Of a stretch of DNA of 64,000 nt, positions 2,354 to 21,478 are shown piece by piece. The notes below the pieces were generated by a model. That model did not search any database. It was not told where the DNA came from and was given only the letters and a program-made list of their open reading frames with translations. Numbering within the stretch: the first letter of the stretch is position 1; every line of letters starts with the position of its first letter. Source of the stretch: an uncultured Acidobacteriota bacterium (GTDB lineage Bacteria > Acidobacteriota > Thermoanaerobaculia > UBA5066 > Gp7-AA6). The position numbers were made by a program, and so were the translations under genes. Location: NCBI GenBank assembly GCA_963776755.1, contig CAVZNW010000002.1, positions 269,733 through 333,732 on the forward strand, in the 5' to 3' direction.

Positions 2354-3626
2354 GCCGGTGAAGGCCCGCCGCTGGCTCGTCGTGAGCCAGTACTACGCGC
2401 CCGAGATGGGAGCGCCCCAGATCCGCCTGAGGTGCGTCGTGCGCGAGCTCCGCCGCCACGGCATCGCGGTCGAGGTGCTCACCGCGCTGCCCAACTATCC
2501 CGCCGGCGTGATCTTCGACGGATATCGGGGCCGATGGTCGGTCCGCGAGACGATCGACGGCGTCGACGTGCATCGCACCTGGGTGCACGGCGCCACCGGC
2601 AAGTCGGCGAGGGCGCGGCTGGCGAACTACTTCAGCTTCACGCTGTCGGCCCTGCTCGCCGTCGCGCGGGCCCCGCGCCCGGACCTCATCTTCCTCGAGT
2701 CGCAGCCGCTGTCGCTCGGCGTCGTCGGCCTGTTTGCGAAGTGGTTCCGGGGCGTGCCGTACGTCTACAACGTGCCGGACCTGCAGGTCGACGTGGCGCG
2801 GCAGATGGGGTTCCTCCGCAACGAGACGCTGCTGAAGGTGGCCACCGGGCTCGAGAACCTCTTCCTTCGCCGGGCCGAACGGGTCTCGACCGTGACCGAG
2901 GACTTCATGCGCCACTTCGTCGGCCGGGGCGTCGAGGCCGATCGCGTGACCTTCCTGCCCAACGGCGCCGACACGGAATTCCTGCGGCCGCGGGACCCGG
3001 ACCCGGCCCTGCTGGAACGGTGGGGCCTGAGGGGCAAGAAGGTGTTCCTCTACGTCGGAACGCACGCCTTCTACCACGGGCTCGACACGCTCATCGAGGC
3101 GGCAGAGAAGCTCAAGGACCGCGGCGATCTCGCGTTCCTGCTGGTCGGCGACGGCCCGGAACGGCCGCGCCTGAAGCGACTCGCCGAGGAGAAGGGGCTG
3201 AAGAACGTCGTCTTCGGAGCCTCGCCGTACGACGAGATGGACCGTCTCTACTCGATCGCCTGGGCTTCGGTCGCGACCCTGCGCAACATCGAAGTGGCCA
3301 AGGGGATGCGCCTCTCGAAGATCTTCCCGTCGCTGTCCTGCGCGGTGCCGGTCGTCTACGCGGGCGCGGGCGAGGCCGCGGGAATCCTGCGCGACCGCCG
3401 GTGCGGCGTGGTGACGCCGCCCGAGGACTCCGGGGCGCTCGCGGCCGCGCTCGCCGCCCTCGCGGACGATCCCGCGCGGCGGGCGGCGATGGGGAGGGCG
3501 GGCCGGGACCTCGTCCTCGCGGACTACAGCTGGAAGACGATCGTCGAACGGTGGCTTGAGCAGATCGGATGGATGGGGAAGGCCGAGGAGAGCGGGGATG
3601 TCGCGTCCCGAAGCGCCGGGCGCTGA
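2343..3626 (+). CDS. Glycosyltransferase family 4 (WcaI/WbuB-like)
   Basis: ATG at 2343 overlaps the upstream stop. Motifs SQYYAPEMGA, TALPNYP, YNVPDLQ, FLPNGAD, LVGDGPE and SKIFPSLSCAVPVV. Confidence 0.88.
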   Translation: MSAEPVKARRWLVVSQYYAPEMGAPQIRLRCVVRELRRHGIAVEVLTALPNYPAGVIFDGYRGRWSVRETIDGVDVHRTWVHGATGKSARARLANYFSFTLSALLAVARAPRPDLIFLESQPLSLGVVGLFAKWFRGVPYVYNVPDLQVDVARQMGFLRNETLLKVATGLENLFLRRAERVSTVTEDFMRHFVGRGVEADRVTFLPNGADTEFLRPRDPDPALLERWGLRGKKVFLYVGTHAFYHGLDTLIEAAEKLKDRGDLAFLLVGDGPERPRLKRLAEEKGLKNVVFGASPYDEMDRLYSIAWASVATLRNIEVAKGMRLSKIFPSLSCAVPVVYAGAGEAAGILRDRRCGVVTPPEDSGALAAALAALADDPARRAAMGRAGRDLVLADYSWKTIVERWLEQIGWMGKAEESGDVASRSAGR

Positions 3627-4353
3627 CGCGGCGGCGGCCGCCGCGGCCGACCGCGCAGCCGCCGAGCGGGAGCGCATCGAAGCCGAGTACCGCCGGCGCG
3701 AGGCGGAGATCGACCCGGATCGGTACGCCGCGTGGCAGCCCGCGGAGCTCTTCTTCCGGAGCGAGCGGCGCCGCGTGGCGGCGGAGCTGCTGCGCAGGGC
3801 CGGGGTCTTCCCGCGGCCGGGGGACGACTGCCTGGAGATCGGGTACGGCGCCCTGGGCTGGATGGGGGAGCTTCTCTGCTTCGGCCTGCGGGAAGCCGAT
3901 CTGCACGGCATCGAGCTCGATCCGGTGCGCTTTGCCCGGGCGAAGGAAGCGCTCCCCGCGGCGGACCTGCGGCAGGGCGACGCGTCCGCGCTGCCGTGGC
4001 CCGCGGCGACGTTTCGCCTCGTCATCGCTTCGACGCTGATGTCCTCGATTCTCGACGAGGCCATGCGCCGACAGATCGCCCGGGAGATGACCCGGGTCCT
4101 CGCGCCCGGAGGCGCCGTCCTCTGGTACGACTTCACCGTCAACAACCCCGCCAATCCCCACGTCCGCGGGATCCGATCCCGCGAGGTCGCCGCGCTCTTT
4201 CCCGGCCTGAAGAACCGCGCGCACCGGACCGTGACGCTGGCGCCGCCCGTCGCCCGCCGCGTGGCCCCCTGGAGCTGGCTCGCCGCGAGCGTTCTCGAAG
4301 CGCTTCCCTTTCTTCGCACGCACCTGCTGACGGTGCTCGTAAAGGAGTCCTGA
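3598..4353 (+). CDS. Class I SAM-dependent methyltransferase
   Basis: LEIGYGALG motif I, LHGIELD, GDASALPW, and LAPGGAVLWYDF. Confidence 0.85.
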   Translation: MSRPEAPGADAAAAAAADRAAAERERIEAEYRRREAEIDPDRYAAWQPAELFFRSERRRVAAELLRRAGVFPRPGDDCLEIGYGALGWMGELLCFGLREADLHGIELDPVRFARAKEALPAADLRQGDASALPWPAATFRLVIASTLMSSILDEAMRRQIAREMTRVLAPGGAVLWYDFTVNNPANPHVRGIRSREVAALFPGLKNRAHRTVTLAPPVARRVAPWSWLAASVLEALPFLRTHLLTVLVKES

Positions 4354-5611
4354 ATGAAGGAGTCGGTCCCTTACTTTCGCCCGGAGATCGGTGAGGACGA
4401 GGTCCAGGAGGTGGTTTCGGCGCTGCGCTCGGGCTGGCTGACGACCGGGCCGCGCGTCAAGCGCTTCGAGGACGAGTTCGCGGCGGCAGTCGGCGCGCCG
4501 CACGCGGTTGCCGTCAACTCGTGCCACCGCGGCCCTCCACCTGGCCGTCGAGGCGCTCGGCCTGAAGGCGCGGCGAGGCCGTCCTCGTCCCGACCATGAC
4601 GTTCGCCGCCACGGCCGAGGTCGTGCGGTACCTCGGCGCCATCCCGATCCTGGTCGACTGCGACCCGGTGACGCTCAACATCGACCTCGACGACGCCGAG
4701 CCGCAAGCTCGACGCGCTCGCGGCGGCGCAGGCTCCCGGCGAAGGTCTCCTGCGGGCGGCCCGGTCGGGATCATCCCGGTCCACGTCGGCGGCCTGATGA
4801 TGGACATCGCCCGCACTCCGCGCCTTCGCCGAAGCGCACAGCGGCTCTGGGTCGTCGAGGACGCCGCGCACGCGTTTCCGGCGGCCTGGCGGCCGCCGCG
4901 GCGGGCGCCTGGCAGCGCTGCGGCGAGCGACACGTCGGCCGTCAGCTGCTTCTCCTTCTACGCCAACAAGACGATCACGACCGGCGAAGGGGGCATGGCG
5001 GTCACGGCCGACGCCCGAGCTCGCCGAGCGGATGCGGCTGCATGTCGCTCCACGGACTGTCGCACGACGCCTGGAACCGCTACAGCGGCGGCGGCAAGCT
5101 GGGACTACCGGATCGTCGCGCCCGGGCTTCAAGTACAACCTGACGGACGTCGCGGCGGCGATCGGCATCCACCAGCTCGCGCGCGCCGAGGCGATGCGCC
5201 AGGAGCGCGAGACGATCGCCGGCGGCTCTACCGCGACGCCTGGCCGGACATCGACGAGGTGGAGCTGCCGCCTGGCCGGACGACCGGGTCCACGCCTGGC
5301 ACCTGTTTCCGATCCGGCTGCGGCTCGATCGGCTCGCGATCGACCGCGACGCCTTCATCGACGAGCTCAAGGCCCGCGGCGTCGGCTGCTCCGTCCACTG
5401 GCGGCCGCTGCACCTCCACCCTACTACGAGGAGACGTTCGGCTGGAGGGCGGAGGACCTGCCCGTGGCCACGCGCGTCTGGGAACAGCTCGTGAGCCTTC
5501 CCCTCTTTCCGGGCATGCGGCCGGGAGAGATCGCGCACGTGGTCGGAAACCGTGCGCGCCATCGCTCGCGAGCACGCGGCCGCCGCGCGTGCCGCGACGG
5601 GGAGGCCCTGA
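4354..5611 (+). CDS. DegT/DnrJ/EryC1/StrS family PLP aminotransferase (reconstructed across frameshifts)
   Basis: [58 protein letters not shown] and LSLPLF are found in successive frames. Confidence 0.88.
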
Positions 5612-6258
5612 ACATCCAGAGCCCGTCCGCGGCCCCGCGCTCGGGCGGCGGACTTCCGCGCTGGGTCGAGGTCCCGATGGCACTCGTCGGCCTGGCGGCG
5701 GCGGCGCCCATCATCGCCGCCGCGGGAATCGCGATCGCCGCCGGCAGCGGCCTTCCCGTGTTCTTTCGCCAGGTCCGCGTCGGGCGCCATGGAAGGCCCT
5801 TCACGCTCGTGAAGCTGCGGACGATGCGGGGGGCGGCGAGCGGGCCGCAGGTCACCTCCCGCGGCGATGCGCGCATCACCCCCGTCGGTCGCTTCCTGCG
5901 TCGGACCAAGCTCGACGAGCTGCCCGAGCTCTGGAACGTCCTGCGCGGCGAGATGTCGTTCGTCGGCCCCCGGCCGGAAGTGCCCGGCTACGTCGACGCC
6001 GCGGACCCCGTTTGGGCCGAGATCTTGCAGGTCCGTCCAGGTCTGACGGACCCGGTGACAATCCGTTTGAGAGACGAGGAGGGACTGCTGGAGAAAGTCG
6101 AAGGCGACAGGGAGCGGTACTACAAGGAAACCCTTCAGCCCATTAAACTTAAGGGCTACCTGGACTACCTCGGGGCCAGGACGTGGAGGTCGGACGTTCG
6201 CGTGATTTTCGAGACTCTCGGGGCCGTCCTCCGCACGAAAGGGTCACCGGCATCTTGA
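5608..6258 (+). CDS. Phosphoglycosyl transferase (Bac_transf, PglC/WcaJ-like)
   Basis: FFRQVRVGRHGRPFTLVKLRTM, RITPVGRFLRRTKLDELPELWNVLRGEMSFVGPRPE and VRPGLTD. The start is uncertain (possible CTG at 5608 overlapping the upstream TGA). Confidence 0.88.
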   Translation: MNIQSPSAAPRSGGGLPRWVEVPMALVGLAAAAPIIAAAGIAIAAGSGLPVFFRQVRVGRHGRPFTLVKLRTMRGAASGPQVTSRGDARITPVGRFLRRTKLDELPELWNVLRGEMSFVGPRPEVPGYVDAADPVWAEILQVRPGLTDPVTIRLRDEEGLLEKVEGDRERYYKETLQPIKLKGYLDYLGARTWRSDVRVIFETLGAVLRTKGSPAS

Positions 6259-6283
6259 AAATCTTGCTCCATTGCCTTACCGT
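6255..6283 (+). promoter_or_regulatory. Possible sigma70-type promoter for the dehydratase gene
   Basis: TTGAAA (6255-6260), a 17 nt spacer and TACCGT (6278-6283) in an AT-rich patch. Confidence 0.35.
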
Positions 6284-6421
6284 TTCACGTTCAAATCAAA
6301 TGAGTTCAGCCGCCGTCGGGCGGGGAGGAACGAGTGCCGCGGCGCCGCGACATTCCTTCATCCCCTTCCCGGAAGCGAATCGAGTGAGCGCCGGACTCCA
6401 ACGGCAGAGGGCGGATTTGTC

Positions 6422-8372
<1,951 letters not shown>

Positions 8373-8432
8373 GCGCCTTTCCGCGCGGCTGTCCCTTGGA
8401 TGTCCCGACCGGGGCCAAGCCTCGCGCGGGCC

Positions 8433-9930
8433 TCAGCGCCCGGAGGGCCGCTCGACCGTGCGCGGCGCCCTCGGATCGGGCGCCGAGGTCTCGGGCCCCC
8501 GGCGAGCGTGCTCCGTCGTGATCAGGACGAAGGCGTTGAACTCCGGCCCGGTGGGCGGCGGGGCGGGCCAGCCGACCGGCGCGGCGACCGTCAGTCCCGC
8601 CATCGGAATCGAAACCGGGCCGCTCTCGTAGGTTCCCGCCACGACCGGCTCGCCGAAGAAGTCCTGGACGTTGCGGATCTCGAAGCGGTCGCCGGGCGCG
8701 AGGATCGCGCCGAGGTCGACGTCGACGGCGGACTTCAGGTCCCAGTTGTAGATCGTGATGTTGGCGCGGCCCGGCTCGTACTGGTTGGGGCGGAGGAAGA
8801 TGCGCTGGCCGGTCGGGCGTTGAGCCAGGTAGTCGTTCTCCGGGTAGTGCGCCGGTGCGACGCCGGCGACGGAGCCCAGGAACGTGTTGCCCGTCATGGA
8901 AACAGGGAGGCACTTCACGAAGACCACGCCGTTGGATGCGTAGTTGTCGGTGACCACCGCGTCGGTGCACCCCGCCTGGAAACCCACGTCGAGCGCCGAG
9001 ACCGGGCCGCCCGTCGGGTAGTAGAGGAGGTTGTCCCGGATCGTCGGGCTCCTCGCGACGCGACCGCCGCCGAGCAGGAGATTGCGACCGCCGGACGACG
9101 ACAGGTCGCCGGAGTTGAACACCGTGTTGCCTTCGATGTCGAAGTTGTCGAGGGGCGCGGCGTCGGAGCCATAGGCGTGGATTCCGTGGCTGAATCCGGA
9201 AAATATGATGTTGTCGGCGATGCGCTTGGTGCCGGTTTCGTTCTGCGTGTAGATGCCGTGGCCGTGGCCGCGGTCGGCCGATTCCCAGCCGTTGTAATAG
9301 ATCAGCGAGCCGTAGACCTCTCCGTCGATCGCCTCTTTCCAGAAGCTGACCCCTTGCCGCGTGTCGTGCAGAACGAGATTGATGAAGCGCAGGCCCGGCC
9401 CGGTCGTGGAGCCCTGGTTCGTCAGGACGGCCTCGCCCCTGGGAATCTCCGAGCCGGACGGCCACGAGCCCGTCGAGGAGGTCTGTCGGAGCGGATCGGA
9501 GCTGGTGACTTCGAACCCCCAGTACCAGGTGTACGACCCTTCGACCGTCAGGATCGCGGATCCATTGGTGGCGCCGCCATCCAGAGTCGCTCGTTCTCCC
9601 GGAAGAGCCCGGACGATGATCGGACGATCCGCGGCCCCCTCGAGTCGGCTTCGGTAGGCCCCCGCGTAGGTTCCTCCGCGGAGCCAGATGGTGTCGCCGG
9701 CCTCGACCCCGGAGGAGCCCGACAGCGCAGTCGCGAGGTCCCACGGGTCCCCTGCGGTCCCGCGGCCCTGGGGACGCCCCGTGGGCGACGCATAGAACGA
9801 GCTGCCCGGAACCGGTCGAGGAGACCGTCGTGAGTGCGGATTCGCTCGCAGCCGTCTGTGCGCCGGCCGAACAAAGCACGCTGGCGCTGCAGGCGAGCAG
9901 CCCGACCGCAATTCTCGTGCGGGGATTCAC
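8433..9930 (-). CDS. Secreted right-handed parallel beta-helix protein, paralog 1 (no SLH)
   Basis: GTG at 9930 gives a signal peptide (NPRTRIAVGLLACSASVLCSAGA) that joins ORF 8433-9911 through one indel near 9800. [27 protein letters not shown] and GHGHGIYTQN fit the DUF1565/pectate-lyase-like fold. Confidence 0.78.
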
Positions 9931-9942
9931 GCTGGGATTGTA
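9931..9942 (-). promoter_or_regulatory. -10 element positioned for a leaderless transcript
   Basis: On the minus strand, TACAAT (9942-9937) is followed by 6 nt and then the GTG start at 9930. There is no Shine-Dalgarno. Confidence 0.55.
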
Positions 9943-10092
9943 CGGCCAAGCGGGGGTTCGGAGTGTGAGCCCGACCACGGGGTCCGTTACCCCAGGGCTG
10001 ACAGGGACCTACCGCCCTTAGGGATGGGTTAAGGACCCGAACGAGATCGTCGCCAGGTCGCCGGCCGGCACACGGAGCGCGGGATCCGAGGC

Positions 10093-12004
10093 TTACGGGG
10101 TGAGGGCGAAGGTCCGGACGAGCAGGGTTGCCATGGGACCCCGTTTGACGGGCGCCGCGGGGCAAAAGCGGCCGCCCCCGCAGCCCGAGCTGATTCCCCG
10201 GTTCGCAAGGTCCTCGATCCAGGCTGCGGCGAAGGCGTTGGCCGGGACGTCCGAAAAGACGGTCCCCGTCGCGGCCGGTGGCGCGTACGCTGCGCCGAGA
10301 CTCGATCGCAGCAGGAAAATTGCCATCTGTGCCCGGCTGATCGCCGAGCCGGGGCAGTAGATGTTGGTGCCGCATCCGCCGGTGATCCCTTCCGAGGCGA
10401 GCGCCTCGATCCAGTCCGCGGCGAAGGCGTTGGCCGGAACGTCGTCGAAGACCGCACCCGAAGCCGGGGCCGGAACCTAGGCCGCAGCCATGCGCGCTGC
10501 GGAGCAGGAACACCGCCATCTGGTCACGGCGAACGACCTGGTCGGGCAGTAGTCGCCGCTGCCGCAGCCGGCGGTCACCCCGGCGGCCGCGAGAGTCACG
10601 ATGTCGTCGTGATGGGGGTTGGATGGGAACACGTCCAGGAACTCGTTCGGGCCTGGAGCCGCAATGCAGGACATATGCGTTGAAATCGGGGCCTGTGACC
10701 GCGGGCGCGGGCCAGCCGACCGGCGCGCTCGGCGCCAGATTCGTCGGGAGCGAGATCGGAGATCCGTCGTACGTTCCCGACACGACGGGGAAGCCGAACA
10801 TGTCCTGCGCGTTGCGGATTTCGAAGGCCTGGCCGGACGGTGAGGATCGAGCTGAGATCGACGGAGACGGACGACAGCGCGTCCCAGTTGAACACCGTGA
10901 TGTGCGCGCGACCCGTCTCGTACTGGTTCGGCCGCAGGAAGACCTTCACGCCCGTCGGCCGGGAGGAGTAGAAGCTGTTGTCCGGGAACTGGCCCGGCGT
11001 GAATCCCTGGATCGAACCGTAGAAGCGTGTTGCCGGTGATGGTCATCGAGCTGCAATACACGGCGACGTTGTTGGCGATGTAGTTGTTCGTCACCGTCGG
11101 ACTCTGGCAATTCGACCCGAACAGGCCGAGCTTGAGCGCCGTGGTGGGGCCGCCGGCGTAGTAGAGCGAGTTGCTGATCAGCTTCGGGTTCAGGGTCTGA
11201 CCCTCACCTCCGACCAGCACGTTCCGCGTGAAATCGCCGCCGATCCCGTTCAGGAAGATCGTGTTGCCCTCGAGGCTCGATGTCGTCGACGTACGCCGCG
11301 GACGAACCGTAGAACTGGGCGCCCTCTCCGAAGTTGGAAGAAGACGATGCTGTCGGTCACCCTCTTGGTGTTCCCGGCATTGGTTCTGGCCGTAGACGCC
11401 GTGGCCGTGCCCGTCGTCCGGGCGCTGCCAGCCGTTGTAGTAGACGATGCTGCCGTAGATCTCGGAGTTCGTCGCTTCGTCCCAGAAGCTGAAGCCCTGG
11501 CGCGTGTCGTGGACGATCATGTTGATGAACTTCAGGCCGTCGTGGGTGCGTGCTCTGGTCGATCACGACGCCCTCGCCGCGCGGGATCTCCGTCCCGTTG
11601 GGGCCGGGGCCGGACACGGAGGAGACCCGGTCCGTGTTCGAGGACATGACCTCGAAGCCCCAGTACCAGGTGTAGGCCCCCTTCACGAAGAAGATCGGCA
11701 GCCCGCTGGAATTGCCGCCGTCGATGATCGCGCGCTCGCCGGGGTATTGCCGAACGATGATCGGATTGGTCGCGCCGCCCGTCAACTTGCTCGTGTACCG
11801 CCCCGGGTACGTGCCGCCCCGCAGCCAGATCGTGTCGCCGGGCTGGACGGCGCCGGGTTGATCGAGCGCCGTCTGCAGCTTCCATGGACTGGCGAGGCTG
11901 CCGTTGCCGCTCCCGCTGGCGGCGGGCGAAACGTAGAAATCCGAGGCGGCGGCGAACGAGGCGCAGAGAGCCAGGGCCGCTGCACCGACGATCCGCTGAC
12001 TCAT
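10093..12004 (-). CDS. Secreted beta-helix protein, paralog 2, with three C-terminal SLH repeats (frameshifted)
   Basis: Signal peptide MSQRIVGAAALALCASFAAA, the same beta-helix head as paralog 1, then three repeats of F.DV....WIE.LA..GI..GCG...YCP....R.QMA.FL at about 10093-10650. Confidence 0.8.
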
Positions 12005-12033
12005 GTTCCGATGTTACGCAGGCGCGGCCCCGA

Positions 12034-12069
12034 AGGCTACTGTCCCTTCAAGCGTTCCGTGGGACAGGT
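12034..12069 (-). promoter_or_regulatory. Conserved upstream motif pair ACCTGTCC ... CAGTAGCCT
   Basis: Plus-strand AGGCTACTG (12034-12042) and GGACAGGT (12062-12069). Both elements recur at 15084-15092 and 15111-15117 at nearly the same distance from the paralog's start codon. Confidence 0.55.
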
Positions 12070-12108
12070 TCCGCGGCCTTGCGGCCGCTGGCCACAGGGG
12101 CAGGCGCG

Positions 12109-15052
12109 CTACTGCAGGCCGAAGGCGCGGACGAGGAAGGCCGCCATCTGCCCGCGCGAGTTCGGGAGGTTCGGGCAGAAAATGCCGGTACCGCATCCCG
12201 AGGTGATTCCCTCGCGCGCCAGCTCTTCGACCCAGGGCGTGAACGGATCGTTGATCTGGAGGTCGGTGAACATGCCGGTCGCCGGGGGCGGGGCGTATCC
12301 CGCCGCGTGGGTGGCCCGCAGAATGAAGACCGCCATCTGCGCCCGGGTCACGATGCCGTTGGGACAGTAGCGGCCGCTGCCGCAGCCGGAGCTGATCCCC
12401 TCGTCGGCGAGCTGTTCGATCCACGCCGCCGCGAAGGAGCCCGCGGGGACGTCGCTGAAGACCGTCCCCGTCGCCGCCGGGGGAGCGTAGCCGCTGCCGT
12501 GCTTGCTCTTGAGCAGGAAGACGGCCATCTGGGCCCGGGTCACGCCGCTGGACGGGCAATAGAGGCCGTTGCCGCAGCCGGTCGTGATGTCGTTGTCGGC
12601 GATCGTCTCGATGAACTCGTAGAACGGGTTCGACGGGGGCGCGTCCGCGAACGTCGTCACGTTGCCCTCGGTCGGGACGAAGTCCGGATCGTTGGTCACG
12701 ATGATGCGATCGACCAGGCTGCCGACCTCGCGTCCGTCCAGTTCAATCCAGTTCGACCCGGCCTGGAGCGTCACGATCCGCGGGTCGAGGGTCAGCGGGA
12801 TCCCGGTCCCGGCCCGGCCGTTCAGGATCGACCACTGCCAGTCCGGCGACCAGGTGCCTTCCGCGAGGTCGTAGACGTCCGTGCCGTTTCCCGCCGCGTT
12901 GGCGAAGAACGAGTCCTTCGTGGCGCTCGTCGCGAGCACCCGGCACCAGACGTAATAGTTGCCGCTCGCCGGAACGTTGAAGTTCCAGCGCGCCGAGCCG
13001 GCATCGCTGCTGCTGGTCGAGACGAACTGGCCACCGAACGTTCTCGTGGAGCTGCCGACGGCCATCGGAGCGGTCACCGTTCCCGGATTCGGCTTCGAGT
13101 CGCAGGATGAACGGCACCGGCGTGGGCGTCGGGGTTCCCGTGGGCGCGGGCGTGCTGGTGCGCGTCGGCGTCGCGGTCGGCGGCGGCGGGGTGGGCGTGC
13201 GCGTCGGGGTCGGCGTGGCCGTCGGAGGCGCCGGAGTCGGAGTGGCGGTCGGAGGCGCGGCCGTAAAGGTCGGCGTCGGCGTCGAAGTCGGGGGCGCCGG
13301 CGTATGGGTCGCGGTCGGAGGAACCGGCGTGGCCGTCGGCGTGGGGGTCGGTGACGGTCCGTCGGTCGGCGTGAGCGTGGCGGTCGGTGTGAGCGTGGCG
13401 GTGGGGGTGGCCGTGGGAGGCGCCGGAGTCGGCGTGTCGGTCGGTGTCGCCGTCGGCGGCGGGGGCGTGGGCGTCCACGTCGCCGTTGGCGTCGCGGTCG
13501 GCGTGAAGGTCGCGGTCGGCGTGAACGTCGCGGTTCGCGTCGGCGTGGCGGTCGGCGTCGACGTGGCGGTCGGCGTCCGGGTGGCCGTCGGCGTCGAAGT
13601 CGGCGGCGGCGGCGTCGGGGTTCGCGTGGCCGTGGGGGTCGCGGTCTTCGTCGCCGTCGGCGTGGCCGTCGGCGAGCCGCCGGGCGACGCGGGCAGCAGC
13701 AGGAAGACGTTGAAGTCGAGGCCGGTGTTGGGAGGCGTCGGCCAGCCGATCGGCGCGGCCGGCGTCAGGTTCATCGGAAGCGAGATCAGCGAGCCGTCGT
13801 ACGTACCGGAGACGATCGGCCGCGCCCAGGACGTCCTGCCCATTGCGGATCTCGAAGCCCTGGCCCGGCGTGAGCACGCCGCTCAGGTCCACGGAGACGG
13901 TGGACTGCGCCGCCCAGTTGAACACCGTGATGTTGGCCCGACCGGCCTCGTACTGGTTGGGGCGAATGAAAACCTTCACGCCCGTGGGGCGGGAGGAGTA
14001 GTAGGTGTTGTTCGGGAACTGGGTCGGCGTGAACCCCTCGATCGAGCCGTAGAACGTGTTGCCGTTGATGGTCATCGAGTTGCAGAAGACCGTGACGTTG
14101 TTCGCGATGTAGTTGTTCGTGACAGTGCGGGCTCTGGCAGTTCGGCGCCGGACAGCCCGAGCTTGAGCGCGGTCGTCGGACCGCCCGGCGAGTAGAAGAG
14201 GTAGTTGCTGATGAGCTTCGGGTTCTGAGACGGGGCCTCGCCGCCGACGAGCGCATTGCGCGTGTAGCCCGTCGAGGCCGTTCTGGAAGAGCCGTGTTGC
14301 CTTCGAGCTGGATGTTGTTGATGACCGCCGCGGAGGAGCCGTAGAACTGGAGGCCTTCGCCGAAATTGGAAAACACGATGCTGTCGGTGACCTTCTTGGT
14401 GTCGATCCGGTTCTGGCCGTAGACACCGTGGCCGTGGCCGTCGTCCGGGGCGCTCCAGCCGTTGTAGTAGACTGATGCTGCCGTAGATCTCGGAGTTCGT
14501 CGCTTCGTCCCAGAAGCTGAAGCCCTGGCGCGTGTCGTGGACGATCATGTTGATGAACTTCAGGCCGTCGTGGGCGGTGCTCTGGTCGATCACGACGCCC
14601 TCGCCGCGAGGGATCTCGGTGCCGTTCGGGCCCGGGCCGGACACCGAGGAGACCCGGTCCGTGTTCGAGGACATCACCTCGAAGCCCCAGTACCAGGTGT
14701 AGGCGCCCTTCGACGAAGAAGATCGGCGATCCCGTTGGAGTTGCCCCCGTCGATGATCGCGCGTTCGCCGGCGTACTGCCGCACGAATGATCGGATTGCT
14801 CGCAGCTTCCGGTCAGCTGACTCGTGTACGTCCCGGTGTACGTCCCTCCCCGCAGCCAGATCGTGTCGCCCGGCATGCACGGCCGACGGATGGTTCAGCG
14901 CCGTCTGCAGCTTCCAGGGGTTCCCGATGGTCCCGTTGCCGCTGGAGCTCGCGCGTCGGGGAGACGTAAAACTCGCTGGCCCCGGCGACACCCGCGAGAG
15001 CCATGAGCAGAGCAAGGCTCAGGCCGGGTGTCCGCCGAAACGCGAATCTCAT
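12109..15052 (-). CDS. Secreted beta-helix protein, paralog 3: beta-helix, long Pro/Thr stalk, CBM6/35-like beta-sandwich, three SLH repeats (frameshifted)
   Basis: ATG at 15052 gives the signal peptide [25 protein letters not shown]. The head closely matches paralog 2. A PTATPT linker spans 13110-13690, followed by [24 protein letters not shown] and SLH repeats at 12109-12660. Confidence 0.8.
13110..13690 (-). repeat. Coding low-complexity Pro/Thr tandem repeat, about 190 aa
   Basis: Translates as [31 protein letters not shown]... in ORF 12743-13843. Confidence 0.9.
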
Positions 15053-15083
15053 GACGTGGAGGATGCCCTCTCCGGCGCTCCGC

Positions 15084-15156
15084 AGGCTACTGGTCACGAA
15101 GGCCGAAGACGGACAGGAGCCCGTTGAGGAGGCAGCTACTGTTCTCACGGACAGGT
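15084..15156 (-). promoter_or_regulatory. Duplicated motif pair upstream of paralog 3, including a lux-box-like 20-mer
   Basis: AGGCTACTG (15084-15092), GGACAGG (15111-15117), then TACTGT-N8-ACAGGT (15137-15156), which fits CTG-N10-CAG. Confidence 0.55.
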
Positions 15157-15319
15157 TCCGGGTGGCGCGATCCTCCGAACAGCCTTTGAATCGCGTGTTT
15201 CTTGTCCGGATGAGAGGTGGGCGCCGCGGGCAGGTGCAGCAAAAGTACAGGTGACGTCGGCGGCTCCCGGCGACGCCTGGCAAAACGGGCGGGATACTTG
15301 CTAGGAGCCCATAGTCACA

Positions 15320-16084
15320 ATGCTCGGTCGTCACGCGTACAAATCCCAGAGCGGCGGTCGTCGCTGGCTGTACCGCGTCTGGGGCGCTCCGTCCATCCAC
15401 GTCCGCCAGAAGTGGTCGGCGGTCTGGCCGCTCGTTTCCGAGCTGCCCCAGCAGGATCTCGAGATCCTCGACCTCGGTTGCGGCAAGGGCGACTGGGTGC
15501 TCGAGATCGCCGCGCGCCGGCCCGGCTGGAAAGTGATCGGCGTCGACCGGAGCCACGAAGCCGTCGCGAGTGCGGAGGCCGGCGTGGGCGCGCTGGCGCT
15601 CGAAAACGTCCGTCTGCGGGTCAGCGATTTTTTCGACTACGCGGCGCAAAAGCCCTTCGACGTCGTCCTGTCGATCGCCGCGATCCACTACGCGGCGCGC
15701 GACGGGCGCATCGATGAATTGTTCGATCGTATGCGATCGTGGGTCAAACCGGGAGGGCGTCTTCTTCTGCTCGTTCCCCGCCGGCGCGCCCGGGTTCCGT
15801 TCTGGCGCCGGCTGCCCCATCAGGAGTGGCATGCGGTCTTCTCGGCGGCGGATCTGCTTCGCCTCTGCGAGGAGCACGGCTTTGCGGTCGAATCGCTCTC
15901 GGGCACGGTCGGGCCTCGCAGGACGGCCGCCAAGCAGATCGATTGGCTGGTCAACTCCCGCTGGCCCGCCCTGCGCTCGCTGGCCTATCCCCTGATCTGG
16001 CTCCTGAGCGCCACCGAACCGGCCGTGTTCGCTTCGCGCCAGATCCCGACGGCGTTCTGGACACTTTCCGCGCGGGCCCATTGA
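15320..16084 (+). CDS. Class I SAM-dependent methyltransferase
   Basis: ILDLGCGKG, VIGVDRS, DVVLSIAAIHY and VKPGGRLLL. Confidence 0.88.
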   Translation: MLGRHAYKSQSGGRRWLYRVWGAPSIHVRQKWSAVWPLVSELPQQDLEILDLGCGKGDWVLEIAARRPGWKVIGVDRSHEAVASAEAGVGALALENVRLRVSDFFDYAAQKPFDVVLSIAAIHYAARDGRIDELFDRMRSWVKPGGRLLLLVPRRRARVPFWRRLPHQEWHAVFSAADLLRLCEEHGFAVESLSGTVGPRRTAAKQIDWLVNSRWPALRSLAYPLIWLLSATEPAVFASRQIPTAFWTLSARAH

Positions 16085-16142
16085 TTCGATCGGCCCCCGC
16101 CCCGGATCAGCGGTCTCTCCGTGCCCGGCCGGCGTGCGAAAT

Positions 16143-16162
16143 ACCTGTCCCTGGGTACAGGT
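16143..16162. promoter_or_regulatory. lux-box-like palindrome ACCTGT-CCCTGGGT-ACAGGT
   Basis: Perfect 6-bp arms with an 8 nt spacer. It ends 6 nt upstream of a candidate TTGCTC-N17-TACCCT promoter (16169-16197). Confidence 0.6.
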
Positions 16163-16204
16163 TCGCCCTTGCTCCGGCGCTCCAAAAAACGTACCCTGCC
16201 GTCA

Positions 16205-16879
16205 GTGTCGAAAGGTGTTCCGCGCCGTCGGGCTACGGTCTGCTTGCTTGCCTTCCACCCGCTCGTGCTTTCGGAGTTCGAGCGGCTTCTCGCGGAGCAT
16301 CCGCTCGCGGTCACGCCCCGGCGCCTGGAGCCCGACCTGATCGCCGACCCGGCGAAGCTGAACGTTCCGCGGGCCTCCGTCTACGTGGTGGAAAGCCATG
16401 CGCACCGCCCGACGACCGAGGCGCTCGTCGTCGGGGTGATCGGGCGGCAGCCGGCGGCCCGGGTCCTGGTGGTCGCCGAGAAGTTCGGGCAGGCGGAAGC
16501 CTTCCCGCTGCTTCGACTCGGCGCCAAGGGTCTCCTGACGTTTGCCGAGGCCTCGGAGCAGCTCGCGCGCGCGGTGTTGGAGGTCGCGAGCGGCGGCTTC
16601 TGGGTCCCGCGCTCCCTGCTGTCGAGCTTCGTGGACGAGACCATCAGCTCGGTCCGGCGCCCCCGGGGGCCCGTCGGCCCGGCCCGGCTGTCCCGCCGGG
16701 AGAAGGAAGTTCTGGAGGCGCTGCTCGAGAATCTGTCCAACAAGGAGATCGCGAGCAAGCTCAACATGTCCGAGCGAACGGCCAAGTTCCATGTTTCCAA
16801 TCTGTTGGCCAAGTACGGGGTACGCCGGCGGGCCGACCTGATCCTCCTGACCTACACGCAGCTCGAGAAGCCCGTCTAG
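16205..16879 (+). CDS. LuxR/NarL-family HTH regulator with an atypical (pseudo) receiver domain
   Basis: C-terminal LSRREKEVLEALLENLSNKEIASKLNMSERTAKFHVSNLLAKYGV. The N-terminal REC-like fold ends in GAKGLL..LARAVLEVASGGFW. The in-frame GTG at 16205 is preferred over 16121 because it follows a -10 element. Confidence 0.88.
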   Translation: MSKGVPRRRATVCLLAFHPLVLSEFERLLAEHPLAVTPRRLEPDLIADPAKLNVPRASVYVVESHAHRPTTEALVVGVIGRQPAARVLVVAEKFGQAEAFPLLRLGAKGLLTFAEASEQLARAVLEVASGGFWVPRSLLSSFVDETISSVRRPRGPVGPARLSRREKEVLEALLENLSNKEIASKLNMSERTAKFHVSNLLAKYGVRRRADLILLTYTQLEKPV

Positions 16880-16887
16880 CGGGCCCT

Positions 16888-16916
16888 TTGACAGGGCCCC
16901 GGGCGTCGAATAGCCT
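16888..16916 (+). promoter_or_regulatory. Sigma70 promoter of the PQQ-dehydrogenase/SLH genes
   Basis: TTGACA (16888-16893), a 17 nt spacer and TAGCCT (16911-16916). Confidence 0.7.
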
Positions 16917-16946
16917 GCAACCTCTACCGACAACAGAGATTCAAGG

Positions 16947-19900
16947 ATGAAGAGGCCTCTGCTCGCCGCCGCATTTGTATTGGCCGTCACAAACGGCCTG
17001 GCGGGCGCGGTGCTGCCCGCGGGATTCACGGAAACCTCCTGGAGCGGGATCACCAATCCGACGGCGATGGCGGTCGCTCCGGACGGCCGGCTCTTCGTCT
17101 GCGAGCAGGGCGGCAAGCTCCGCGTCATCAAGAACGGCGTCGCTGCTGCCGACGCCGTTCGTGACGCTGACCGTCGATTCCGCCGGCGAGCGGGGCCTTC
17201 TCGGCGTCGCGTTCGACCCGAACTTCCTCTCCAACCAGTACGTCTACGTCTACTACACGGTACCGGGCTCGCCGTCGCACAACCGGCTCTCGCCGCTTCA
17301 CGGCCAACGGCGACGTCGCGCTCTCCGGGCAGCGAGCTCGATTCTTCTCGAGTTGAACGACCTGACGTCGCCACCAACCACAACGGCGGCGCCATCCACT
17401 TCGGCACCGACGGGAAGCTCTACGTCGCGGTCGGCGACAACGCGACCGGCTCGAACTCGCAGACGCTGACCAACCTCAAGGGCAAGATCCTCCGCGATCG
17501 GCGTGCCGCCGGACCCGCGATTCCGACCGACAACCCCTTCTACGGCCAGGCGACCGGCAACAACCGCGCGATCTGGGCCCTCGGCCTGCGCAACCCGTTC
17601 ACCTTCGGTGTTCAGCCGGGGACCGGCCGGATCGTTCATCAACGACGTCGGGGAGAACACCTGGGAGGAGATCAACGACGGCGACGCCGGCGACAACTAC
17701 GGCTGGCCGACGTCCGAGGGCGACTGCAACAATCCCGAGCTACGAGGACCCCCTCTACACGTACAACCACTCGCGGAGCGTGCTCGATCACCGGCGGCGA
17801 CTTCTACAACCCCGACGTTCCGCAGTTCCCGGCGAGCTACGTCGGCAAGTACTTCTTCGCCGACTACTGCGGCGGCTGGATCAAGTACATCGATCCGGCC
17901 TCCGGCACGCCCAGCGCCACCACCTTCGCGACCGGAATCTCGAGCCCGGTCGACGTCCGGACGGACTTCAACGGGTACCTCTACTACCTCGCCCGCGGCG
18001 AGGGCAAGGTCTACCGGATCACGTACACGGGCTCGAACGCCCCCACGATCACGGAGAACCCGCAGAGCCAGCTGATCTCGACGGGCCACCCGGTCACCTT
18101 CACCGTCAGCGCGACGGGCCAGGCGCCTCTCTCCTACCAGTGGCAGCGCAATTCGACGGACATCGGCGGCGCGACCGTCTTCCTCCTACACGATCGCCTC
18201 GGTCGGCAGCGGCGACAACGGCGCCCAGTTCCGCTGCATCGTCTCCAACGCAGTTCCCCCGAGCGCCACGAGCGCGCAGGCGACGCTGACGGTGACGTCG
18301 AACCAGCCGCCCGCGGCCACGATCTCCTCGCCCACGGCGGGCACGACCTACGGCGGAGGCGACACGATCGCCTATGCGGGCAGCGCCAGCGACCCGGAGA
18401 CGGGCGCCTTGCCGGCTTCGGCCTTCACCTGGTGGGTCAACTTCCACCACGACACGCACTTCCATCCGTTCCTGCAGCCGACGAGCGGCGAGACGAGCGG
18501 CTCGATCACGATCCCGTCGTTCGGCGAGACCTCGGCCAACGTCTGGTACCGGATCCACCTCTCGGTCGTCGATCCGGCGGGCCTGACGGACGAGACGTAC
18601 GTCGACGTGATTCCGCGGACCACGACGATGACGCTCTCGACCAATCCCAACGGCCTTCAGCTCACGCTCGACGGACAGCCGTTCACGGCGCCGCTCGACG
18701 TCGTCGGCGTCGAAGGGATCCGGCGCACGCTCGGCGCGCCGTCGCCCCAGTCCTCGGGGGGCAACACCTACAACTACGTTTCCTGGTCCGACGGCGGGCT
18801 CCAGACCCACGACATCTTCACGCCCGTGTCCGACACGACCTACACGGCGCTGTACACCAGCGGCCCGACGCCGACCTTCACGCGCACGAACACGCCGACG
18901 ATGACCCGGACGGCCACGGCGACGGCGACCCGCACGGCGACCCCCACGGCGAGCCCGACGCCGCCCTCGGGCTCGCTGCCGCCGCCCTGGGCGCAGCAGG
19001 ACGTCGGCTCGCCGGGGGTCGCCGGGAGCGCGGGGTACGCGAGCGGCGTCTTCGCCGTGACCGGGTCGGGCGCGGACATCGAAGAGGCGTCGGACCAGTT
19101 CCACTACGTCTACCAGACGTTGAACGGCGACGGCACGATCCAGGCGCGCGTCGCGACGCAGCAGAACACGGACCCGTGGGCCAAGACCGGCGTCATGATG
19201 CGCGAGACCCTCCTGGCCGGCTCGAAGCACGCGATGATGGCGATCACGCCGAGCAACGGCCTGATCTTCCAGCGCCGCACCTCGACCGGCGGGGCCACCT
19301 CCTCGACGTTCGGCGCGGCCGTCGCCGCGCCGTACTGGGTCCGGATCGTGCGGGCCGGGCTCGAGCTTCAGCGCCTACAGCTCGCCGGACGGCTCCACCT
19401 GGACGCTGCTCGGCACGAGCACGATCACGATGGCGACGAGCATCGTGGTGGGCCTCCCGGTGACGAGCCACAACAACTCGGTGCTCGGCACCGCGACCTT
19501 CGACAACGTCGCGGTCACGCCGACGATCACACCGACGCCCTCGTTCACGGCGACGGTGACCAGCACCTCGACCCCCTCTCGGACGCCGACGCAGACCTGG
19601 ACCTCGACGGTCACGCCGTCGCGGACGAACACGCCGACGTTCACGTCCTCGCCGACGGCCTCGCGCACGCCGACGCAGACGCCGACGGGGTCGGCGACGC
19701 CCACACGGACTGCGACGGCGACCGCCTCGCGCACACCGACGCAGACGGCGACGGGATCGGCCACGGCGACGCGGACGGCGACCGCCACGGCGACCCGCAC
19801 GCCGACGGTCACCGCGACCCAGCCCGCCGGAGTGCCGCCGCCCTGGGTGCAGCAGGACGTCGGAGCGGTGGGGCTGCCCGGCACCGCGACCTATGCGGGC

Positions 19901-21478
19901 GGCGCGTTCGGCGTCGACGCCTCCGGAACGGACATCGAGGAGACGTCGGACCAGTTCCACTACGTCTACCAGGTCCTGACGGGCGACGGCGCGATCCAGG
20001 CCCGCGTCGCCGCCATCGAGAACACCGACCCGTGGGCCAAGGGCGGCGTCATGATCCGCGAGACCCTCGCGGCGGACTCGAAGCACGCGATGATGGCTCT
20101 CACGCCCGCCAACGGCCTCGTCTTCCAGCGGCGGCCGACGACCGGGGGCACGACCGACAGCACGTTGGGGGCCGCCGTCTCCGCGCCTTACTGGGTGCGG
20201 GTCGTCCGGACAGGCTCGACCCTCGCCGGCTACAGCTCGCCGGACGGCGCCACCTGGACGCTCGTGGGATCGACCACGATCAGCATGTCCTCGAGCGTCC
20301 TCGCGGGGATGCCGCTGACGAGCCACAACAACTCCCTGCTCTGCTCGGCCACCCTCGACAACGTCCTGTTCTCGCCGACGATCACGCCGACGCCGAGCCA
20401 TACGCCGACGCAGACGCTCACGTTCACCCCGTCGCAGACGCCGACCCAGACGCCGACGCAGACTCGAACTTCATCGCCGACGGCGAGCCGCACGGCGACC
20501 GCGACCAACACGGCCTCCGCGACGCCGACGAACACGCCGACCGCGACCCGGACGGGATCGGCGACCGCGACGCCGACCCGGACCAACACGCCCACCGTCA
20601 CCCCGGCCGCGCCGACGGTTTCTTCGATCGCGCCGACCTCCGGCCCGGCCGCCGCGGGCAACGCCGTCTCGGTGGGCGGCTCGAGCTTCCAGCCGGGGGC
20701 GACGCTCAAGATCGGCGGCGCCGCGGCGACGACCGTGGTCGTCGTCAACGGCGGCCAGATCACCGGCAAGACGCCGGGGCTGTCGGCCGGCACGCTCAAC
20801 GACGTGACGGTGACGAACCCCGGTAATCTCTCCTCGACGCTGACGAAGGGCTGGTTCGCCGACTTCTCCGACGTGCCCCAGGCCAACCCGTTCCACGGCG
20901 ACATCGAGACCGTCTTCCGGGACGGGATCACCGGCGGCTGCGGCGCGGGCCAGTACTGCCCGACCAATCTCGTCACGCGCGCCCAGATGGCCGTCTTCCT
21001 CCTGAAGGGGATGCACGGGGGCGCCTACGCGCCGCCGGCCTGCTCGACCACGGTGTTCGCCGACGTGCCGTGCCCGGGCGGCCCGTTCGTCGACTGGGTC
21101 AATCAGCTGTCCGCGGAGGGCATCACCAGCGGCTGCGGCGGAGGCAACTATTGCCCGAACAGTTCACTCACCCGGGCGCAGATGGCCGTGTTCCTGCTCC
21201 GGGGCGAGCACGGGAGCGCCTACGCTCCGCCCGCGTGCAGCGCGACGGTCTTCGCCGACGTGCCGTGTCCCGGGGGTGCGAACGTGAACTGGATCAACCA
21301 GCTCGCCTCCGAGGGTGTGACCGCCGGCTGCGGCAACGGGAACTACTGCCCGGCGGCCGCGACTCCGCGCCAGCAGATGGCCACGTTCCTCGTGCGCACC
21401 TTCGGCCTGACTTCGCTCGCCGGGCGAACGCCGGTCACCCGGCCGGCGGACCTGCGTCCCGGCGTGAGGCGTCCCTAG
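16947..21478 (+). CDS. Secreted PQQ-dependent glucose/sorbosone dehydrogenase (GSDH) multidomain protein 1: GSDH, Ig, PKD-like, two ConA-like domains, Pro/Thr stalks, IPT/TIG, three SLH (frameshifted)
   Basis: Signal peptide [62 protein letters not shown] and ITGGDFY, then LSYQWQRN (Ig), two PWx[21 protein letters not shown] domains, [12 protein letters not shown] (TIG) and SLH repeats. Confidence 0.85.
18860..20610 (+). repeat. Three coding Pro/Thr/Ser linkers (about 18860-18960, 19520-19830 and 20380-20610) flanking two duplicated domains of about 180 aa
   Basis: [11 protein letters not shown] and [13 protein letters not shown]-type translations. The domains at about 18975-19515 and about 19835-20375 are similar at DNA and protein level. 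Confidence 0.85.

Follow-up and report, generated by a model that had tools for sequence, protein, structure and literature searches.

Regulators of the NarL/FixJ family bind as dimers to inverted repeats placed just upstream of the -35 element, as exemplified by the RcsB box, and NarL recognizes both 7-2-7 paired sites and lone heptamers. Acidobacteriota are a dominant and mostly uncultured phylum of soils and, to our knowledge, almost nothing is known of their transcriptional control. Among the regulators that resemble VpsT, a W-x-P-R motif (WLPR), the proline variant of the VpsT cyclic di-GMP (c-di-GMP) motif, marks the c-di-GMP-independent QstR and BrpT, and for QstR no common binding motif could be defined (PMC6237807). 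Here we consider a 64,000-nucleotide (nt) stretch of an uncultured Acidobacteriota bacterium of the class Thermoanaerobaculia, represented by a metagenome-assembled genome (contig CAVZNW010000002.1 of assembly GCA_963776755.1, positions 269,733 to 333,732; hereafter the window, whose numbering we use throughout, positions elsewhere in the assembly being prefixed C1, C2 or C4), in which two paralogous genes for proteins with SLH repeats (paralogs 2 and 3) and the gene of a LuxR-type regulator, Reg1, are each preceded by the heptamer CCTGTCC. From the sequence patterns set out below we consider it likely, with some reservations, that this heptamer is a half-site of a 20-bp dyad operator, that a dimer of Reg1 is its most probable ligand, and that about 20 such sites make up a cell-envelope regulon.

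A conserved 20-bp dyad in non-coding DNA

Genome-wide matches to ACCTGT-N8-ACAGGT show conserved inner bases, which extend the motif to the dyad ACCTGTCC-N4-GGACAGGT. When both half-sites were scanned across the genome at spacings of 0 to 16 nt, as well as in the everted arrangement, the N4 spacing yielded 6 sites with up to one mismatch and 9 with up to two, against 0-1 sites with up to one mismatch for each of the other arrangements; none of 150 palindromes made from permuted half-sites reached 6 sites, their mean being 0.11. All 6 of the closest matches are non-coding, and 8 of the 9 found at up to two mismatches fall within the 10.5% of the genome classed as non-coding by a codon-usage window model (89.5% coding; an earlier gene mask based on a threshold of GC content at third codon positions covered only ~55% of the genome and was discarded). 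In a position weight matrix (PWM) built from the dyad sites, the copy upstream of the regulator (16143-16162) is the second-best site of the genome with a score of 25.0, and that before paralog 3 (15137-15156) the eighth best with 19.4. The former has the CCTGTCC at 16144-16150 as its left half, and the latter includes the CCTGTCC at 15149-15155 as one of its halves.

The dyad changes how the individual motifs of an earlier note on this DNA are to be read. A sequence check of the window located every one of them: CCTGTCC at 12062-12068, 15111-15117 and 15149-15155 (all minus strand) and at 16144-16150 (plus strand); two minus-strand copies of CAGTAGCCT (12034-12042 and 15084-15092); the exact 12-mer GGACAGGTTCCG at 12062-12073 and 15149-15160; and a lux-box-like TACTGT-N8-ACAGGT at 15137-15156, with a further copy of ACAGGT (15247-15252). 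The spacing to the start codons is likewise as noted, namely 58 nt (ATG 12004), 59 nt (ATG 15052) and 55 nt (GTG 16205) for CCTGTCC, and 30 and 32 nt for CAGTAGCCT before the first two of these starts. What does not stand is the heptamer as the functional unit: CCTGTCC is one half of the 20-bp dyad, with a lone extra half-site at paralogs 2 and 3. By itself it is not enriched in the window (6 observed, 10.2 expected) and is enriched only 1.4-1.5x in non-coding DNA genome-wide, while ACCTGT alone is not enriched either (87 observed, 81 expected). Read literally, the enrichment over background that the earlier note had expected of ACCTGT and CCTGTCC is therefore borderline, the heptamer being weak and the strong signal residing in the dyad.

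A regulator that accompanies the dyad

The product of the gene downstream of the strongest dyad in the window, Reg1, carries a GerE/LuxR helix-turn-helix (PF00196, E = 6e-17), which is its sole Pfam domain: residues 1-149 have no Pfam match even at E = 10, and the autoinducer-binding domain PF03472 was not found in a Pfam search of the whole protein. Its sequence matches the structures of VraR/LiaR, DevR, NarL, RcsB, EvgA and VpsT, over the full length in the case of LiaR, RcsB, VraR, NarL and EvgA, and an AlphaFold2 model (mean predicted local distance difference test score, pLDDT, 87) has the NarL/FixJ regulator fold, with a (beta-alpha)5 receiver followed by the helix-turn-helix. In an alignment of Reg1 with 25 orthologs, in which the receiver pocket positions were placed by eye against NarL/VraR alignments, the acidic pair of the phospho-acceptor pocket is missing (AF or SP instead), the phospho-acceptor Asp is kept in Acidoferrales (YVIDAH) and replaced by Glu in this lineage (YVVESH), Ala or Gly stands in place of Thr/Ser, and Phe or Tyr in place of Lys. 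The stretch GGFWVPR is invariant in these proteins; the canonical c-di-GMP motif W[F/L/M][T/S]R occurs in none of them, WVPR standing instead. No histidine kinase gene adjoins the regulator gene, whose neighbors encode a methyltransferase and a GSDH-SLH protein.

Relatives (designated by L codes), found through the regulator protein, are metagenome-assembled genomes of Thermoanaerobaculia and Acidoferrales/Terriglobia. The dyad lies before the regulator gene in the same place in four of its six close orthologs (L005, L001, L003 and L006). In L001, L003 and L006 a paralog gene adjoins the regulator gene in divergent orientation, with one common dyad, and in the window and L005 a methyltransferase gene lies between paralog and regulator and there are two dyads; L001 and L003 have no methyltransferase gene in this place. 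ERT(A/V)KFHVSNLL, the recognition helix, hardly varies across the classes, matching the invariance of the operator, and we count this as a further tie of the dyad to the regulator.

The presence of the regulator and that of the dyad also go together among genomes. At up to two mismatches, six regulator-bearing Thermoanaerobaculia hold 36 dyads against 1 match to a reversed control, and eight regulator-bearing Acidoferrales hold 67 against 8. An even sample of 151 Acidobacteriota genomes contains the regulator in 4; the 147 without it have 132 dyads against 157 control matches, whereas the 18 genomes with the regulator have 124 against 13 (Fisher p = 1e-20), a comparison confounded by phylogeny, as the regulator genomes fall in few lineages, and in which 14 of the 18 had been selected through the regulator itself. 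Genomes of the same class and the same order that do not carry the regulator show no enrichment of the dyad.

As a separate observation, the Acidoferrales regulator orthologs (L007-L077) have a second strongly conserved box, GTCAGTAACAATTCGTGAACA, ~60-110 nt upstream, and in common an operator-like ACTTGCCC-N4-GG(A/C)CAGTT overlapping the putative -35 (TTGCCC). This suggests that their autoregulatory layout differs and may be negative.

Predicted content of the regulon

The earlier note had proposed a local regulon of the three genes. The dyad takes it well beyond this locus, with about 20 operators predicted genome-wide and an operator-regulator pair conserved in both Thermoanaerobaculia and Acidoferrales. 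Besides the regulator and paralog 3, dyads precede a fourth paralog (C2:378866), three tandem GSDH-SLH genes (C2:2362374, 2366195 and 2373015), genes for a beta-helix SLH protein (C2:2350050) and another SLH protein (C2:516488), outer-membrane and OmpA-like protein genes (C2:230163 and 1902661), and genes for NusG/UpxY-like (C2:236580), PSP1-like (C2:2588603) and 5'-nucleotidase (C1:518578) proteins, most of these names having been read from translations and not from a family search. Orthologous dyads stand before the NusG-like, PSP1, GSDH-SLH and C2:985846 targets in other genera. In Acidoferrales, dyads precede pilB together with a sensor kinase, and genes for an M23 peptidase and for outer-membrane/PKD, GWxTD and YVTN-repeat proteins. 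Paralog 2, with its degenerate dyad, is also counted in the predicted regulon. The theme common to these targets is the cell envelope. No description of this regulon was found in the literature library searched.

The pilB site deserves separate mention. In L130, L133 and L135, all Acidoferrales, the dyad lies between divergent genes for a pilB-type ATPase and a sensor kinase, and an extra half-site, GGGACAGGT, is found 11-12 nt downstream of it and 7 nt upstream of a TTGACT -35 hexamer, making this another case of a dyad combined with a lone half-site.

Simple promoters and the likely mode of action

Upstream of the regulator, the dyad ends 6 nt before the predicted -35, and the predicted -10 TACCCT is followed after 7 nt by GTG 16205, which implies, as a prediction, a leaderless regulator mRNA. 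The same layout (TTGCnn, 17-18 nt, TAnCCT, ~7 nt, start codon) recurs at the regulator promoters of orthologs of two classes. At five promoters in all (those of the regulator, PSP1, NusG-like and GSDH2 genes and of C2:2373015), 29-30 nt separate the end of the dyad from a downstream TAnnnT or GATACT hexamer, and the orthologous promoters keep this spacing, which would place the center of the dyad near -51.5, just upstream of the predicted -35. We propose that a Reg1 dimer would occupy ACCTGTCC-N4-GGACAGGT at this position and, by contacting RNA polymerase, activate transcription. Activation is favored over other modes because the dyad sits where RcsB-type activators of the family, like other NarL-family activators, are placed, although our preference for this mode is a modest one.

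The earlier note had further suggested that the activator is needed only where the -35 is weak. The GSDH promoter next to the regulator, with its consensus TTGACA, indeed has no CCTGTCC nearby, and to this extent the suggestion is borne out; other GSDH-SLH genes, however, carry a dyad beside a good -35 (TTGACC, TTGATA), so that it holds only in part.

Predicted composite promoters of the paralogs

The near-equal distances from CCTGTCC to the three start codons do not reflect a single promoter geometry: the predicted -10 follows the heptamer after 41 nt at the regulator and after 21-22 nt at paralogs 2 and 3. At the latter, the lone heptamer spans approximately -41 to -35, no -35 box is present there, and a full (paralog 3) or degenerate (paralog 2) dyad, with equal position relative to the heptamer in the two genes, lies near -69. 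The element CAGTAGCCT, the other part of the motif in the earlier note, most likely holds the -10 and is less likely a second activator box, because its TAGCCT is enriched 5.2x in non-coding DNA and pairs with TTGACA at 17 nt in the GSDH promoter; it may also be fused to a half-site core, and the regulator promoter is without it. There are 2 copies of CAGTAGCCT in the window against 0.08 expected and 3 in the whole 4.4-Mb genome, the third (C2:2448313) having no gene downstream in that orientation.

The resulting layout, namely the dyad, 15-19 nt, CCTGT(C/A)C, 18-19 nt and CAGTAG, recurs at both orthologs in L005, at two genes in L003, in L001, and at about ten further promoters of the same genus or order, with spacers between the parts that cannot be aligned among the relatives. 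The spacing of 18-19 nt between heptamer and CAGTAG is kept in 13 of 15 aligned promoters; among 32 paralog promoters of relatives, 13 have a dyad with a PWM score of at least 17 and 20 have CAGTAG. The dyad at 15137-15156 is retained in L005 as GCCTGTAC-TCGG-GGACAGGA with diverged flanks, and a dyad at the paralog-3 position is found also in L099, L106, L123, L104, L117 and others; CCTGT(C/A)C is retained at the position of the paralog-3 heptamer in ~13 paralog promoters of relatives. For paralog 2, L005 keeps the degenerate dyad 12086-12105 as GCCTGCCC-GGTT-GGCCAGCT, the lone half-site as CCCTGTAC and the GGACAGTA that overlaps the probable -10 as CCAGTAGTCT. By comparison, P1-type paralogs (window 8433-9911; L003c; L006a and L006b) are without all these motifs and have TACAAT-like -10 boxes.

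The bases that precede CAGTAG are usually GG(A/C), and the resulting GG(A/C)CAGTA has the appearance of a half-site variant joined to the -10; it is also present within true dyads, at 15137-15156 and in L099. Heptamer and variant together form an inverted repeat with N15-16 spacing, which is not enriched elsewhere in the genome, nor did split dyads with N15/N16 spacing show genome-wide enrichment. We infer that the paralog promoters are composite, with a dyad near -69, a lone half-site that would take the place of the missing -35, and CAGTAG holding the -10 (TAGnnT).

A different account of the same core is that CCTGT(C/A)C and CAGTAG, 18-19 nt apart, are the -35 and -10 of an alternative sigma factor, with the upstream dyad as the only transcription factor site. 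The tightness of the spacing in the 13 of 15 promoters is what one would expect of promoter elements, no sigma-70-like -35 is found at the paralog promoters, and CAGTAG is invariant, whereas T stands at the sixth position of TAGnnT in only 9 of 14. Nonetheless, a genome-wide search for CTGT(C/A/T)C-N17-20-CAGTAG returned paralogs 2 and 3 only, and the bipartite motif is therefore not a general promoter class; moreover, the supposed -35 agrees with the operator half-site in 7-8 of its 8 bases, and the -10 side carries the half-site variant that also lies within true dyads. We regard an alternative sigma factor as unlikely. Signatures of extracytoplasmic function (ECF)-type sigma factors (GGAAC...CGT; AAC/CGT) or of sigma-54 were also considered, and none is conserved at the paralog promoters.

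Identity of the binding protein and other explanations

Several points weigh against an operator bound by Reg1, over and above the limits of the co-occurrence test given with it. At a PWM score of at least 14 there are 23 non-coding sites against 4 coding ones, an enrichment that is partly circular, because non-coding sites were used to train the matrix (the tests that count mismatches are free of this circularity), and some of the high-scoring matches are members of an unrelated repeat family. Lone half-sites are only ~1.9x enriched genome-wide (18 against 9.5). All promoter positions were read from the sequence, and a sigma-70 scan of the Escherichia coli type recognizes none of the promoters proposed; paralogs 2 and 3 have their half-sites at other positions than the simple promoters do; and with many indel errors in the assembly the spacings may be off by one base. 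The regulator genes of L002 and L004 have no upstream dyad. Finally, the binder is not assignable to one protein because a second regulator of the family, Reg2, shares the recognition helix of Reg1.

This last point sustains the possibility that the dyad is a real site of another binder, be it Reg2 alone or an unrelated transcription factor. Reg2 has a recognition helix identical to that of Reg1, with WVGR in place of WVPR, and its promoter (TTGCCC, 17-18 nt, TACCCT, close to the ATG) overlaps, across its -35, the operator-like GTTGCCC-TCAC-GTACAGGA; it could bind the dyad too, and co-occurrence cannot separate co-inherited factors. Reg1 is nevertheless the one with the dyad before its gene, where it is conserved, and the dyad-enriched Acidoferrales carry orthologs nearer to Reg1 (57-59% identity) than to Reg2 (47-50%). 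A 20-bp dyad with CTG-N10-CAG also fits dimers of the LuxR-type helix-turn-helix. The neighboring GerE/LuxR-type regulator, which the earlier note had implied as the binder, is retained as the best candidate, if with a competitor of the same recognition helix, and we think another binder about as improbable as an alternative sigma factor.

That the likenesses upstream of paralogs 2 and 3 are functionless remnants of a neutral tandem duplication is much less probable still. The two genes are recent duplicates (83% DNA identity across the head domain), and the flanks of the exact 12-mer CGGAACCTGTCC, including CGGA, are not conserved in relatives, so that this particular identity may be residual or due to chance. 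Yet the elements and their spacing persist before proteins only 50-60% identical, in other species and genera, with unalignable sequence between them. The earlier note had argued for selected sites and not duplication debris, and had taken motif loss amid kept flanks in orthologous promoters to speak against this; the opposite was found, the motifs and the CCTGT(C/A)C-CAGTAG spacing being kept where the intervening sequence diverged.

The least probable reading is that the palindrome forms an RNA or DNA hairpin as a terminator, stability element or REP (repetitive extragenic palindromic)-like repeat: an 8-bp stem with a 4-nt loop is possible, the copy at C2:2366195 is followed by TTTTTCTT, and several copies follow closely on the stop codons of SLH genes that form tandem arrays, but across 57 sites from this and related genomes only 6 of 112 arm positions off consensus are compensated on the opposite arm, which argues for a protein site, the arm sequence is conserved across classes with the loop free, the spacing to -10 boxes is fixed, some sites are flanked by divergently oriented genes, and a terminator scan of 11900-17000 found none.

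Features and genomic context

The features discussed above are collected in Table 1.

Table 1. Predicted regulatory elements and genes of the locus (window positions unless prefixed).
Feature	Position	Strand	Remarks
Putative operator dyad before regulator	16143-16162		ACCTGTCC-CTGG-GTACAGGT; upstream of regulator gene; 1 mismatch to consensus
Predicted regulator promoter	16169-16197	+	TTGCTC (16169-16174), 17 nt, TACCCT (16192-16197)
Reg1	16205-16879	+	pseudo-receiver + LuxR/GerE helix-turn-helix, 224 aa
Putative operator dyad before paralog 3	15137-15156		sense strand ACCTGTCC-GTGA-GAACAGTA
Lone half-site CCTGTCC of paralog 3	15111-15117	-	19 nt downstream of dyad; 21 nt upstream of TAGCCT (~-40 to -34)
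CAGTAGCCT of paralog 3	15084-15092	-	probable -10 TAGCCT (15084-15089); conserved CAG before it
Paralog 3	12109-15052	-	secreted; beta-helix-like head, Thr/Pro-rich linker, SLH repeats; SLH Pfam match
Degenerate dyad before paralog 2	12086-12105	-	GCCTGCCC-CTGT-GGCCAGCG; PWM score 11.0
Lone half-site ACCTGTCC of paralog 2	12062-12069	-	22 nt upstream of TAGCCT (~-42 to -35)
CAGTAGCCT of paralog 2	12034-12042	-	with upstream bases GGACAGTA, a half-site variant overlapping the probable -10
Paralog 2	10029-12004	-	same head domain + SLH repeats; frame breaks in assembly
Half-site-like octamers	15228-15235; 15245-15252	+	GGGCAGGT; GTACAGGT; intergenic between paralog 3 and methyltransferase, upstream of methyltransferase gene
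Methyltransferase gene	15320-16084	+	S-adenosylmethionine-dependent; between paralog 3 and regulator; Pfam Methyltransf_23/25
GSDH-Ig-SLH gene promoter (comparator)	16888-16916	+	TTGACA (16888-16893), 17 nt, TAGCCT (16911-16916); no operator
Reg2	C4:682529-683152	-	second regulator of same family; 58% identity to Reg1; other contig

The second of the octamers upstream of the methyltransferase gene is retained in L005 as GGACAGGT, within a direct repeat GGACAGG-ATAA-GGACAGG. Upstream of the SLH paralogs lies a glycan-synthesis cluster (1043-7873), with genes for a UDP-glucose/GDP-mannose dehydrogenase, a methyltransferase, a DegT-type aminotransferase and a Polysacc_synt_2 dehydratase. An Rfam search of the window returned tRNAs only.

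Long genes are split into several frames at 8300-15052 and 16947-21478, and the reading frame of paralog 3 is broken several times; the assembly comprises 4 contigs and 4.4 Mb and was scored only 56% complete, and in relatives the members of this gene family have uninterrupted reading frames of 500-1000 aa. This points to pervasive long-read indel errors rather than true pseudogenes.

The genome also holds an abundant non-coding repeat, GAAAAATGAAGACCTGACCCC, with 84 copies at up to 4 mismatches, 70 of them non-coding and none in the window (e.g., C2:1758862-1759090 and C1:400486-400572). Its copies are often inverted pairs ~90-100 bp apart, like a miniature inverted-repeat transposable element or a REP element. 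The repeat makes CTGACCC the top over-represented non-coding 7-mer (225 against 67 expected), and its end, GGTCAGGT, resembles the operator half-site and gives a few false PWM matches.

Wider implications and comparison with known systems

Taken jointly, the observations might bear a wider interpretation, which we offer tentatively and ourselves doubt: that Reg1 belongs to an undescribed family of phosphorylation-independent master regulators of the cell-surface proteome, with an additional oligomeric mode at the paralog promoters. Such a family would span at least two classes of Acidobacteriota, with an invariant WVPR and an operator almost unchanged between the classes, and its targets would comprise SLH-anchored enzymes, outer-membrane proteins and, in Acidoferrales, type IV pilus genes. 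At the paralog promoters the half-sites could follow a ~12-bp register, from the dyad through the lone half-site that replaces the -35 to the half-site core fused to the -10, such that a higher-order oligomer would flank the core promoter on both sides and substitute for recognition of a -35. Irrespective of this, the analysis provides a concrete regulator-operator pairing, found in two classes, and a list of predicted targets, through which the regulation of surface layers and biofilms would become approachable with purified protein and synthetic DNA, no cultured strain being needed.

Among described regulators, VpsT, QstR, BrpT and CsgD of Vibrio and Enterobacteria share with Reg1 a phosphorylation-independent receiver-like N-terminus joined to a LuxR helix-turn-helix, and they control matrix and surface components. 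The W-x-P-R of Reg1 appears to be the QstR/BrpT-type proline variant at the position of the VpsT c-di-GMP motif, a placement drawn from match ranges and not from a residue-level alignment; a PDB search with the linker region only did not retrieve VpsT. Sequence and fold of Reg1 match VpsT at an identity of only 17-18%, and the match to a CsgD model is partial. The predicted operator is a clear 20-bp dyad, unlike the situation with QstR, and the phylum and the targets, SLH-anchored proteins, also set Reg1 apart from the VpsT group.

The dyad itself resembles the lux box in its 20-bp length and its arms ACCTGT...ACAGGT (CTG-N10-CAG), and Reg1 has a GerE/LuxR-type DNA-binding domain; the copy at 16143-16162 agrees at 14 of 20 positions with the Vibrio fischeri lux box. 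Nevertheless, in contrast to LuxR, LasR and TraR, Reg1 has a receiver fold at its N-terminus and no autoinducer-binding domain, the center of the dyad is predicted from promoter elements read in the sequence at about -51.5 as opposed to -42.5 for the lux box, and the inner positions TCC/GGA are conserved in this dyad. In overall fold, a receiver joined to a LuxR-type helix-turn-helix, Reg1 resembles RcsB, NarL, LiaR/VraR and DosR, but differs from NarL/FixJ regulators in that the acidic pocket, the Thr/Ser and the Lys are missing and no kinase gene is adjacent. In kind, this is an ordinary system, a LuxR/NarL-type dimer on a dyad operator, of which the present regulon is a previously undescribed instance.

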